Shown here: piece by piece, positions 7,337-8,920 of the stretch
Layout of the letters: each line of letters opens with the position of its first letter
How positions within the stretch are numbered: the stretch's first letter is position 1
Source: Escherichia phage vB_Eco_QOTSP
Length of the DNA: 64,000 bases
Strand: one strand, 5' to 3'
Sequence record: OY720014
Made by a program: the position numbers and the translations under genes
Notes under the pieces: generated by a model
Databases searched by the model: none
What the model was told of the DNA's origin: nothing
The model's input: only the letters and a program-made list of their open reading frames with translations

Positions 7337-7578
7337 TGTCTGAACAAACTATTGAACAAAAACTGTCTGCTGAAATCGTAACTCTGAAATCTCGCATTCT
7401 TGATACGCAGGATCAAGCTGCTCGTCTGATGGAAGAATCCAAAATTCTGCAAGGAACTTTGGCTGAAATTGCTCGTGCAGTAGGTATCACTGGAGATACC
7501 ATCAAAGTTGAAGAAATCGTTGAAGCTGTCAAGAATCTTACTGCTGAATCTGCAGATGAAGCAAAAGATGAAGAATAA
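7336..7578 (+). CDS. 57A: gp57A tail-fibre assembly chaperone (80 aa)
   Basis: 80 aa acidic coiled-coil protein directly after gene 1. Confidence 0.85.
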
Positions 7579-8033
7579 TGGAATTTAAAGACTTTTCAAC
7601 GGGTCTTTATGTAGCAGCTAAGTTTTCAGAATTAACACTTGATGCGCTGGAAGAACTTCAGCGCTCTTTACGTGTTCCTAATCCAGTTCCTAGAGAAAAA
7701 ATTCATTCAACTATATGTTATTCGAGAGTAAATGTTCCATATGTTCCATCGAGTGGAAGTTTTGAAGTAGCTTCTTCTGGACATTTAGAAGTATGGAAAA
7801 CACAAGATGGATCGACTCTTGTACTTGTGCTAGATTCTGAATATCTGCGTTGTCGACACATGTATGCGCGGGCACTAGGTGCTACACATGATTTTGATGA
7901 TTACACACCGCATATAACATTGTCTTATAATGTTGGACCCTTATCATTTAGCGGTGATGTACAAATTCCGGTCGTATTAGATCGTGAATACAAAGAGCCT
8001 CTTAAACTCGATTGGGCAGATGATTTAAAATAA
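7578..8033 (+). CDS. 57B: gp57B, 2H-phosphodiesterase family = Acb1 (anti-CBASS nuclease)
   Basis: 151 aa with two H-x-T/S motifs (KIHSTI and PHITLS) typical of 2H phosphoesterases; follows 57A; T4 57B is the described Acb1. Confidence 0.8.
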
Positions 8034-8044
8034 TTTCACAAAGT

Positions 8045-8076
8045 TGTTTACATACTGATGAGGTAGTGATACTATT
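8045..8076 (+). promoter_or_regulatory. early promoter within a stem-loop (PeSL-type)
   Basis: GTTTAC -35, about 17 bp spacer, TGaTACTAT -10 embedded in inverted repeat GAGGTAGTGATACTATTACCTC. Confidence 0.6.
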
Positions 8077-8106
8077 ACCTCATCAAAATTAATTAGGAAA
8101 ATAAAA

Positions 8107-8364
8107 ATGAAAACTTTCAAAGAGTTTGCTACAGAAACTATTATCACTGAATCTTCTCATGGTATGGAAGTAAAGCTTGGAATGGCTTTAGCTGAAGCTG
8201 AGCGTCTTTTTTCTCGTATTAAAGAACTTGCTGCTGCAGTCGATCCTTCATCTTTTAAAGGAGACCAAACTAAAGTTAAAGCACTTTTAGCATTATGCTC
8301 TGATGCAGGAGAAATCGCTAAGAACGGTTCTAAGATGAAGAAACGATTAGAAGATTTAAAATAA
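8107..8364 (+). CDS. internal-protein-like small protein with variant capsid-targeting N-terminus (85 aa)
   Basis: N-terminus MKTFKEFATE resembles the T4 internal-protein targeting sequence MKTYQEFIAEA; own promoter. Confidence 0.5.
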   Translation: MKTFKEFATETIITESSHGMEVKLGMALAEAERLFSRIKELAAAVDPSSFKGDQTKVKALLALCSDAGEIAKNGSKMKKRLEDLK

Positions 8365-8376
8365 TTTCACAAAGTT

Positions 8377-8410
8377 GTTTACACGGGGTTTTAGTAGTGA
8401 TACTATTACC
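8377..8410 (+). promoter_or_regulatory. early promoter (PeSL-type)
   Basis: GTTTAC -35 and TGATACTAT -10 inside a palindrome. Confidence 0.6.
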
Positions 8411-8424
8411 CTATCAAAACAAAT

Positions 8425-8676
8425 GTGAAATTGGAGAATAAAATGAAAACGTATCAAGAATTTATTGCTGAAGCTGCTGATGTAAAAGTTGAGTTTATTT
8501 ACATTGGCAAGAAAGATAAAATGGGCGAAATGCCTCATGGAGTTCTTCGTGATGCATTAGATAATTTCGGTCAACTCGCCGCAGAAGATTACGGTGATAA
8601 AATTGTTGTTACTGGTCCGGCTGCAGTTATTGAAAAATGGGCAGCAGAAAATAAATCAATTTTTCGTAAAAAATGA
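8425..8676 (+). CDS. ipI: internal protein I-like (83 aa)
   Basis: Begins with exact capsid-targeting sequence MKTYQEFIAEA; position between 57B and tRNAs as for T4 ipI. Confidence 0.6.
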   Translation: MKLENKMKTYQEFIAEAADVKVEFIYIGKKDKMGEMPHGVLRDALDNFGQLAAEDYGDKIVVTGPAAVIEKWAAENKSIFRKK

Positions 8677-8712
8677 GTTTACTTTTAGATAGGGTAGTGA
8701 TACTATTACCCT
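8677..8712 (+). promoter_or_regulatory. early promoter (PeSL-type)
   Basis: GTTTAC then perfect palindrome ATAGGGTAGTGATACTATTACCCTAT containing the -10. Confidence 0.6.
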
Positions 8713-8734
8713 ATCAACTACTGAGGAGAATAAA

Positions 8735-8920
8735 ATGAAACGTTGTGAATTAATTCGAAATGTTGCTATTGCAATTTCTGCTTCCGCTTTTAGTTTTTCA
8801 ATGTTTGTTGGATTTATATGCGGATTATTAACTACAGCAGAAAATGTGTTTTCACTTGTAGTAGCATTTTTAATTGGTTTAATTGCTATCGTTATGGATA
8901 AAATTTCTAAAGGTGAATAA
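8735..8920 (+). CDS. small hydrophobic membrane protein (61 aa)
   Basis: ORF after GAGGAGAATAAAATG; mostly hydrophobic residues. Confidence 0.45.
   Translation: MKRCELIRNVAIAISASAFSFSMFVGFICGLLTTAENVFSLVVAFLIGLIAIVMDKISKGE

Follow-up and report, generated by a model that had tools for sequence, protein, structure and literature searches.

The locus described here lies between gene 57B and trna.4 of Escherichia phage vB_Eco_QOTSP and holds a gene for the anti-CBASS nuclease Acb1, two small genes for internal proteins (IPs) and three copies of a promoter embedded in a hairpin. We analysed a stretch of 64,000 nucleotides of this phage (sequence record OY720014), hereafter called the window, in which positions are counted from the first letter. 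The window derives from a T6-like Tequatrovirus. A megablast search with positions 7300-9400 matched 790 phage records, and the best matches were all Tequatrovirus: Shigella phage JK23 (98.2% identity), vB_Eco_Some, ADUt, T6 (97.1%) and Yersinia phage PST (96.9%). The region from 57A to trna.3 is 97-98% identical to JK23, T6 and PST. The orientation is the reverse of the T4 map, and the + strand reads gp3, gene 1 (deoxynucleoside monophosphate kinase, Pfam PF21448), 57A (PF17594), 57B, the two small genes, trna.4 and trna.3. The four genes from 57B to trna.4 are open reading frames (ORFs) at 7578-8033, 8107-8364, 8443-8676 and 8735-8920, positions that were given correctly by an initial annotation of the letters alone. 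The corresponding genes are annotated gp57B, IpV, IpVI and tRNA.4 in PST, and ADUt lists an ‘anti-CBASS protein Acb1’ followed by two ‘internal (core) proteins’. The same allele, ip5-ip6, is carried by T6, PST and JK23. The last gene, the trna.4 homologue (8735-8920, + strand), encodes a hydrophobic protein of 61 amino acids (PHROG 1692) that is 100% identical to T4 Trna.4. It lies 3' of the IP cassettes in 33 of 36 related loci from IMG/VR, as it does in the window and in T4, and is the conserved right-hand anchor of the cassette site.

The product of 57B (acb1; 7578-8033, + strand) is a 2H phosphoesterase of 151 amino acids. It matches the Acb1 family of Pfam (PF23474) over profile positions 1-144 of 144 with E = 2.6e-60 and 202.7 bits (cutoff 27), and the Acb1 crystal structure (PDB 7T26) with E = 4.1e-62. 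BLASTP showed 100% identity over 151 amino acids to residues 2-152 of T4 gp57B. Apart from the extra initial Met annotated in T4, we detected no differences between the two proteins. The two H-x-T/S motifs on which the initial annotation had based its identification are H43-S-T45 and H112-I-T114, which correspond to H44/T46 and H113/T115 in T4 numbering; the HxT/HxT tetrad is kept. T4 gp57B has been shown to be Acb1, an anti-CBASS nuclease, and its catalytic tetrad has been defined (Hobbs et al., 2022, PMC9117128; PDB 7T26/7T27). With the family match, the structural match and the identity to a characterised protein, the assignment of the 57B product to Acb1 is as secure as sequence permits. 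The enzyme would hydrolyse the cyclic oligonucleotide second messengers of CBASS, as was shown for the identical T4 protein, so that the host effector is never activated.

The two genes that follow were earlier assigned to internal-protein families, which is borne out by their profile matches and by the names that they already have in public records. The first, ip5 (IpV in PST; 8107-8364, + strand), encodes an internal head protein precursor of 85 amino acids that starts with MKTFKEFATE and matches PHROG 3499 (‘internal head protein’, E = 7.8e-50). The second, ip6 (IpVI in PST; 8443-8676, + strand), encodes an internal protein precursor of 77 amino acids that starts with MKTYQEFIAEA and matches PHROG 8111 (‘internal virion protein’, E = 6e-52). 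The name Ip5 is used in RB14, RB70 (UniRef Q38378), T2 and CM8, and ip6 in VR7, VR20 and fHoEco02. Mature Ip5 was found by tblastn in 494 phage records, 268 of them at an identity of at least 80% and 226, from RB69-like phages, at about 49%. GenBank phage records with the Ip6 type number 230 and those with the T4 IPI type 291, the IPI homologues being a separate set. Both families are narrow: among 5.8 billion proteins Ip5 forms five clusters and Ip6 11, all T-even-like, and Pfam has no family for either protein.

Leaders of this kind end in a site for the prohead protease gp21, (L/I)-x-E with a small residue after it. For Ip5 the predicted gp21 site is I13-T14-E15|S16, which would leave a mature protein of about 70 amino acids, and Ip5 homologues have ITESSHG unchanged, including those with a deletion in the leader. 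The predicted site of Ip6, I8-A9-E10|A11, would leave about 67 amino acids. T4 IPI is cut at ITE19|A20, yielding the known 76-amino-acid IPI*; its leader is MKTFKEFTSTTTPVSTITE|A, and the Ip5 leader, MKTFKEFATETIITE|S, is of this IPI type (MKTFKEF...ITE). The Ip6 leader, MKTYQEFIAE|A, is exactly that of T4 IPII and IPIII. Alignment with T4 IPI, IPII and IPIII, which had been suggested earlier, thus shows leaders that are alike on mature Ip5 and Ip6 that are unrelated to the T4 proteins. BLASTP against T4 IPI aligned leaders only (Ip5 residues 1-26, E = 0.007; Ip6 residues 1-14, E = 0.41), and in an all-against-all BLASTP mature Ip5 and Ip6 had no similarity to T4 IPI, IPII or IPIII, nor to each other. 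The earlier description of the second protein as resembling IPI has to be corrected: its mature part is unlike IPI, IPII and IPIII, its leader is of the IPII/IPIII type, and the IPI-like leader sits on the first gene. We therefore rejected ip6 as an IPI homologue, since the similarity is confined to the leader. The AlphaFold models also differ: Ip5 is predicted to form a two-helix hairpin (helices 17-44 and 54-84, pLDDT 74) and Ip6 a small beta-alpha-beta-beta-alpha-beta, ferredoxin-like domain (pLDDT 82). Fold searches with the Ip6 model against solved structures returned generic ferredoxin-like matches only, none of them significant, and IPI* was not among the matches listed.

Each of ip5, ip6 and trna.4 appears to have its own promoter-early stem-loop (PeSL), here a T4 early promoter whose extended -10 box lies in the loop of a predicted hairpin of 9-13 bp. 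PeSLs were defined by Arbiol et al. (2010, PMC2839356), who placed the stem-loop ‘between -35 and -10 or overlapping the -10’, and the consensus for PST and T4 is TTTACW-N17-TAYWAT (Comeau et al., 2014, PMC4122927). Copy 1 (8018-8106, + strand) consists of the box TTTCACAAAGTT, a -35 box TTTACA at 8047-8052, TG at 8067-8068, a -10 box TACTAT at 8070-8075 and the Shine-Dalgarno sequence AGGA before the ATG at 8107. Its hairpin (inverted repeat I11) has perfect 10-bp arms at 8056-8065 and 8076-8085, with the -10 box in the loop. Copy 2 (8349-8442, + strand) has the same TTTCACAAAGTT box, its -35 at 8378-8383, its -10 TACTAT at 8401-8406 and an imperfect hairpin at 8385-8412. Copy 3 (8677-8734, + strand), with -35 TTTACT at 8678-8683, -10 TACTAT at 8701-8706 and hairpin arms at 8688-8696 and 8707-8715, does not contain the TTTCACAAAGTT box, and its downstream leader differs as well (CTACTGAGGAGAATAAA). 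Copy 1 is identical to the T4 sequence upstream of ipI, and copy 3 and the element ahead of trna.4 in T4 have the same 3' half.

A near-identical, palindrome-embedded promoter ahead of each small gene was already noticed in the initial annotation, and repeat, promoter and fold analyses confirm it; a third copy lies ahead of trna.4. The repeat finder placed 8046-8086, 8377-8417 and 8677-8717 in one direct-repeat family (D2). Copies 1 and 2 belong to a 95-nt repeat pair (8018-8112 and 8349-8443) that runs from the last codons of the upstream gene (DDLK*/EDLK*) into the start codon. The promoter scan returned TTTACA-N17-TACTAT with TG at 8047-8075 and 8378-8406, and the promoter of copy 3, TTTACT-N17-TACTAT at 8678-8706, fits the consensus as well. 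The 64-kb window has exactly three occurrences of the 13-mer core GTGATACTATTAC, all of them at the 57B-trna.4 locus; allowing up to two mismatches gives six matches, where 1.65 are expected, a number that only 1 of 100 shuffles attained. The RNA of copies 1, 2 and 3 folds at -17.4, -14.6 and -16.4 kcal/mol, respectively, with z = -4.95, -3.21 and -3.20 against dinucleotide shuffles. A scan of IMG/VR with the exact 14-mer GTGATACTATTACC was discarded, as it returned chance matches in about 120 unrelated contigs and was uninformative on distribution. In Rfam we found no family for the PeSL region, only the tRNAs downstream.

The PeSL would give each cassette its own transcription start. Transcripts from these promoters start inside the 3' arm and hence are without the hairpin, so that only read-through transcripts from upstream contain it. 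In the latter the hairpin would form just past the preceding stop codon, where it probably serves as an attenuator or as a protective 3' end.

Hairpins of this kind are a general feature of the locus in related phages and of the window as a whole. Among 48 distinct PeSLs at the 57B locus, 38 fold at z < -2. Their stem sequences are diverse (GTGTAGGGATA, GGTAGGACTA, GATGAGGTA, GATAGGGTA, GGTCTATAG, GATGGGATAA, GAGGGCTAT and others), and all are centred on the -10 box. We took the support for the hairpin from the per-copy folding z-scores rather than from covariation in a single register. Window-wide, 10 of 20 GTTTAC-N-TAnnnT promoter candidates on the + strand have a hairpin at z <= -3.0, including the one of denV discussed below; therefore, the architecture is genome-wide and not special to the 57B locus. 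Further early-promoter hairpins across the -10 box lie on the + strand at 14092, 14481, 21055, 26060, 29004 and 62177 (z -3.5 to -6.8). Many members of this PeSL family, dispersed over 64 kb, share an upstream box TTTCACAAA and a downstream CTATCAACTACT.

To compare the locus across T-even phages, as the initial annotation had recommended, we used the window, T4 and the 36 IMG/VR loci that encode a 57B relative (designated L with a number), together with KAW1E185, CM8, T6 and PST. The comparison revealed unrelated cassettes that assort independently, and hybrid PeSLs. The interval from 57B to trna.4 contains 0-3 genes with a strict leader per locus in the window, T4 and the IMG/VR loci, and up to four if looser leaders are included. 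The 58 leader-bearing genes fall into 17 single-linkage sequence families that occur in many combinations, among them ip5-ip6, ipI, ipI-ip6, ip5-ipI-ip8 and ip6 alone. The latter was seen in L035, where ip6 follows straight after 57B behind a copy-2-type element. The sequences of T4 and the window agree over 57B to its end and over all of PeSL copy 1, and part at ATGAAAAC, after which the window has the body of ip5 in place of that of ipI. They match again from ATTTCACAAAGTTGTTTACA, beyond which T4 continues directly with the 3' half of the window's third element (CTACTGAGGAGAATAAAATG-trna.4) and has no ip6. The intermediate between the two arrangements is seen in KAW1E185, which has the order 57B-[copy-1 type]-ipI-[copy-2 type]-ip6-[copy-3 type]-trna.4.

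The single element 3' of ipI in T4 is a hybrid with a left half of copy-2 type and a right half of copy-3 type. This is the product expected from a crossover between PeSL2 and PeSL3 in their shared core GTGATACTATTACCCTATC, by which ip6 would have been lost. Other hybrids combine the copies differently. L027:4529 has the left arm of copy 2 with the right arm and leader of copy 1, and in L027:4861 and L020:5252 a copy-3 left arm (ATAGGGTA) is joined to a copy-1 right arm (TACCTCATCA), so that the two arms have lost their pairing; in L020 there is, in addition, a slipped duplication of GATACTATTACCTCATCAA. The element ahead of ipI in CM8 has a left half and stem of copy-2 type fused to the 5' untranslated region (UTR) of copy 1. 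These hybrid promoter/hairpin elements are footprints of recombination within the repeats.

CM8 (L163, MK962750.1, 70400-74200) was unusual in its gene order, 57B-ip5-ipI-[truncated 57B]-ip5-ipI-ip8-trna.4. A 974-bp tandem duplication covers half of 57B and two IP cassettes, and its junction (…AAACACTCA|GTACTTGTGCTAG…) fuses the 5' UTR of ip8 with the central part of 57B through a microhomology and not through a PeSL. Counter-defence genes may truly have been amplified in CM8, or the duplication may have arisen in assembly. Another arrangement was seen in many non-Tequatrovirus relatives, Mosigvirus-like loci among them (L005, L010, L014, L017, L020-L023, L025-L031, L036, L037, L039; locus position 4453), where the first IP gene overlaps the stop codon of 57B in ATGA without a promoter element, which implies translational coupling. 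In T4-type phages the PeSL is interposed exactly at this junction of 57B and the first IP gene.

Taken together, the window very probably contains the 57B/ipI hyperplastic locus of a T6-like T-even phage, in which Acb1 is combined with cassettes of injected proteins and PeSLs enable recombinational swaps. The PeSLs offer 60-95 bp of near-identical DNA on either side of unrelated coding sequences, and the first ~30 nt of the leader-coding sequence are conserved too. Because near-identical elements and conserved leader starts flank unrelated bodies, homologous recombination between PeSLs, in one genome or between co-infecting phages, would delete, insert or swap whole regulated cassettes. That the repeats act as recombination sites was also suggested in the initial annotation; the hybrid repeats and the independently assorting cassettes of relatives agree with this, and the idea itself had been published before.

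Several points weigh against this interpretation or parts of it. Alleles could also spread by exchange of the locus as a whole through its flanks (57B and trna.4), which are 100% conserved, with no need for a crossover in a PeSL. Covariation in a single register is modest: in a fixed-register pair count over 38 copies 64.4% of cells were paired compared to 59.8% in shuffles (roughly 64% against 60%), although cells with a double change numbered 41 against 24, a value that 0 of 500 shuffles reached, and we take the count as moderate support for selection on a hairpin. The covariation is modest because the copies are related and their subfamilies place the stem in different registers; owing to the latter, one slid register (-3) scores nearly as well as the fixed one. 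There is no U-run after the hairpins and a scan for intrinsic terminators found none, so that the ‘terminator’ role ascribed to the RB49 PeSLs may not apply to them; the hairpins therefore probably attenuate or stabilise transcripts rather than terminate them fully. Neither ip5 nor ip6 has a late promoter of its own, the nearest + strand TATAAATA motifs being at 4614 and 6973. Late synthesis of Ip5 and Ip6 would therefore have to come from read-through or from continued early or middle transcription. The helical hairpin of Ip5 and the ferredoxin-like model of Ip6 yield no functional clue, and a literature search, in which the name ‘Ip5/Ip6’ was swamped by inositol-phosphate papers, found no report of either protein in virions.

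The possibility of exchange through the flanks can be taken further, to the view that the PeSLs are only regulatory, that selection on expression keeps them similar and that the diversity arises from recombination in the flanking 57B and trna.4, which swaps the block as a whole. The flanks, 100% identical at the protein level between the window and T4, do offer far more homology than a PeSL of 60-95 bp, and about half of the early promoters in the window have such hairpins, some of them adjoining conserved genes. Inside the block, however, the cassettes assort independently: ip5 occurs with ip6 or with ipI, and ipI alone or with ip6. PeSLs with halves from different copies occur in T4, L027, L020 and CM8, the breakpoints in the sample examined already point to PeSLs and leader-coding sequence, and recombination between neighbouring PeSLs was shown experimentally in RB49 and phi1. 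Whole-block exchange via the flanks surely happens too, yet it leaves unexplained both the hybrid elements and the fact that cassettes assort independently, and a purely regulatory role of the PeSLs is quite unlikely. It seems most improbable that ip5 and ip6 are paralogues from a tandem duplication of promoter plus gene with rapidly diverged bodies, the repeats being remnants of that duplication. The 95-nt repeat does take in the final codons of the preceding gene as well as the first part of the leader, the leaders are similar, and CM8 illustrates that tandem duplications arise at the 57B-trna.4 locus. The junction in CM8, however, is a microhomology inside 57B rather than a PeSL, mature Ip5 and Ip6 have no detectable similarity and are predicted to be all-helical and alpha/beta, respectively, and other phages have the ip5 and ip6 cassettes singly or in other combinations and orders. 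We rejected duplication remnants as the origin of the repeats on account of the unrelated sequences, the different predicted folds and the single occurrence of the cassettes.

The hairpin might also be more than a stretch of homology. It could be the site of a dedicated, integron-like system that is specific for structure or sequence, in which a phage enzyme, for instance endonuclease VII or a nuclease of the homing type, recognises the extruded cruciform or the loop, and exchange would be targeted instead of following homology. In favour of this, the invariant loop and the -10 core are where several crossovers map, the hairpin is retained despite divergent stem sequences, and one mini-circle crossover in the study of Arbiol et al. 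(2010, PMC2839356) mapped within the loop, with a helper protein left open. On the other hand, the core is the longest stretch of identity, and homology alone is therefore enough to predict crossovers in it. The junction in CM8 is outside the core, in the right arm or 5' UTR, as is that between the window and T4, in the leader-coding sequence, and no integrase or recombinase gene is found in or beside the locus. A dedicated system is thus very unlikely, and such a structure-specific machinery is not needed. It is also unlikely that the -10-loop hairpin is a structure-directed hotspot, with a cruciform or loop that is cut or resolved by, e.g., endonuclease VII, instead of passive homology. If it were, T-even phages would have an integrase-free, integron-like exchange of injected anti-defence cassettes.

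The window contains other genes with the IP leader. A motif scan of both strands found exactly four such ORFs in the 64 kb, at 8107 (MKTFKEFATE), 8443 (MKTYQEFIAE), 13113 (MKSYTQFLNE) and 18444 (MKTYQEFIAE), the last two of which had also been listed in the initial annotation. The third gene (13113-13586, + strand) encodes 157 amino acids with the leader MKSYTQFLNE|A and belongs to PHROG 2280 (function unknown); its site, directly past the region of tRNAs and small RNAs, is outside the 57B locus. Ahead of the gene lie a GC-rich, terminator-like hairpin (GCCCCGACCGAAAGGTTGGGGCTTTTT) and then a late promoter (TATAAATA at 13065-13072), and no PeSL was found at 13037-13113. Therefore, its regulation differs from that of ip5 and ip6. 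The fourth gene (18444-18917, + strand) also encodes 157 amino acids, with the leader MKTYQEFIAE|A, matches PHROG 3155 (‘internal virion protein’, E = 1.5e-101) and starts 10 nt after denV. A PeSL-type early promoter for denV and this fourth IP gene lies at 17963-18012 on the + strand (AAAGTTGTTTAC...TGTGATAGTAT; fold -16.7 kcal/mol, z = -3.44). Its hairpin spans the -10 box, and CTCCT at 17971-17975 pairs with the GGAGG Shine-Dalgarno sequence of denV. The ribosome-binding site of denV would therefore be sequestered in read-through transcripts and free in promoter-proximal ones. The same logic of a sequestered ribosome-binding site underlies the translational control of T4 gene e and soc. A pairing CTCCATTTGG...CCAAATGGAG that resembles this CTCCT/GGAGG pairing was seen in Mosigvirus-like trna.4 promoters (L005, L010 and L036).

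Two variable IP loci are known in T-even phages, one at 57B-trna.4 and one near e and denV (Silas et al., 2025, PMC12373910; PeSL literature). In the window the second locus (17464-18917) reads e, denV and one IP gene of 157 amino acids. T4 has e - ipIII - ipII - denV and T6 has e - regB, without denV and without an IP gene. These different gene orders imply that the window is not T6 itself and that the second IP locus has been rearranged too. For exchange between the two loci, a comparison of the mature regions of IPII, IPIII and the proteins encoded at 13113 and 18444 with the 58 cassettes of the 57B locus gave one marginal match of 21 residues only.

Two further features were noticed downstream of trna.3. 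An ORF of 126 amino acids at 9406-9786 (PHROG 4301, function unknown) lies between trna.3 and a trna.2-like gene. This place is empty in T4, PST, T6 and ADUt, and relatives cease to match in megablast at ~9354. A gene of PHROG 2290, the product of which has about 165-171 amino acids in relatives, contains a perfect tandem duplication of 79 bp at 10290-10447 (2.0 copies, 100% identical). A length of 79 bp is not divisible by 3, and the gene is consequently broken into two ORFs, at 10073-10390 and 10395-10676. The duplication is either a very recent event or an assembly artefact.

IPs are described in the literature as bearing a conserved capsid-targeting sequence and as being packaged and injected. 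T4 Ip1, Ip2 and Ip3 each inhibit one specific GmrSD-type type IV restriction enzyme without cross-protection, and the variants of GmrSD against which Ip2 and Ip3 act restrict T2 and T6, which have neither of these two proteins (Silas et al., 2025, PMC12373910). The IPs of the window are similar to T4 Ip1-3 in their capsid-targeting leader, small size, non-essential accessory character and placement in two IP loci; the 18444 protein and Ip6 have the exact IPII/IPIII leader, and that of Ip5 is IPI-like. In contrast, the mature regions of Ip5 and Ip6 are unrelated to the T4 proteins, and it is for the latter that GmrSD inhibition is known. By its leader each protein would enter the scaffolding core of the prohead, after which gp21 would cleave off the leader, at ITE15|S from Ip5 and at IAE10|A from Ip6. 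Once mature, the two proteins would be packaged and injected with the DNA and could thus act before any phage gene expression. By analogy with Ip1-3, the most likely role of Ip5 and of Ip6 is to disarm one particular nuclease of the host that is directed against glucosyl-hydroxymethylcytosine DNA. An unlikely alternative, though less exotic than the structure-directed hotspot, is that the two proteins counter defences of the host beyond the GmrSD variants that Ip1-3 block. GmrSD targets have been identified for each of Ip1-3; Ip5 (494 records) and Ip6 (230) are common in therapeutic-type Tequatrovirus and Mosigvirus isolates, and finding their targets would aid the prediction of T-even host range.

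The architecture and mechanism of the locus are already known from the PeSL papers of 2010 and 2014 and from Hobbs et al. (2022), and our analysis is a correct rediscovery. The PeSL papers (PMC2839356, PMC4122927) credit Repoila et al. (1994, EMBO J 13:4181) with the observation of IP-locus polymorphism and recombination. Comeau et al. (2014, PMC4122927) sequenced PST, which has the ip5-ip6 allele, reported five IP differences between PST and T4 and restated the hypothesis of IP shuffling. The locus offers a textbook example of the exchange of small counter-defence genes in T-even phages, whose core genome stays conserved: an anti-CBASS nuclease adjoins putative injected proteins that would act before the phage expresses any gene. 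Compared to the 57B-ipI-trna.4 locus of T4, the position, the flanks (57B and trna.4 products 100% identical), the first promoter/hairpin and the presence of leader-bearing injected proteins are the same, but T4 has one cassette (ipI, encoding a GmrSD inhibitor) and the window two (ip5 and ip6), whose mature proteins are unrelated to IPI. The elements of the window share with the PeSLs of T4-like phages the early promoter with a stem-loop, Shine-Dalgarno sequence and ATG in intergenic spaces of a hyperplastic region, a stem that overlaps the -10 box, flanking ORFs that differ between close relatives and crossovers inside the element. The PeSLs of RB49 and phi1 differ in their near-consensus sigma-70 boxes, GC-rich stems and shown terminator activity, and promoter activity and mini-circles, too, were shown only for elements of these two phages. 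The authors of the PeSL papers regard the T-even IP-locus elements, with weaker AT-rich stems and no U-tract, as ‘analogues’ and not homologues of the RB49/phi1 PeSLs. A functional analogy, and no more than that, can be drawn to integron cassettes and the ‘morons’ of lambdoid phages, which likewise gather small self-contained accessory genes at one site; integron cassettes are bounded by attC hairpins, and morons carry their own promoter and terminator. Unlike an integron, the window has no integrase, each of its cassettes has its own promoter instead of a common Pc, and exchange is apparently driven by homology.

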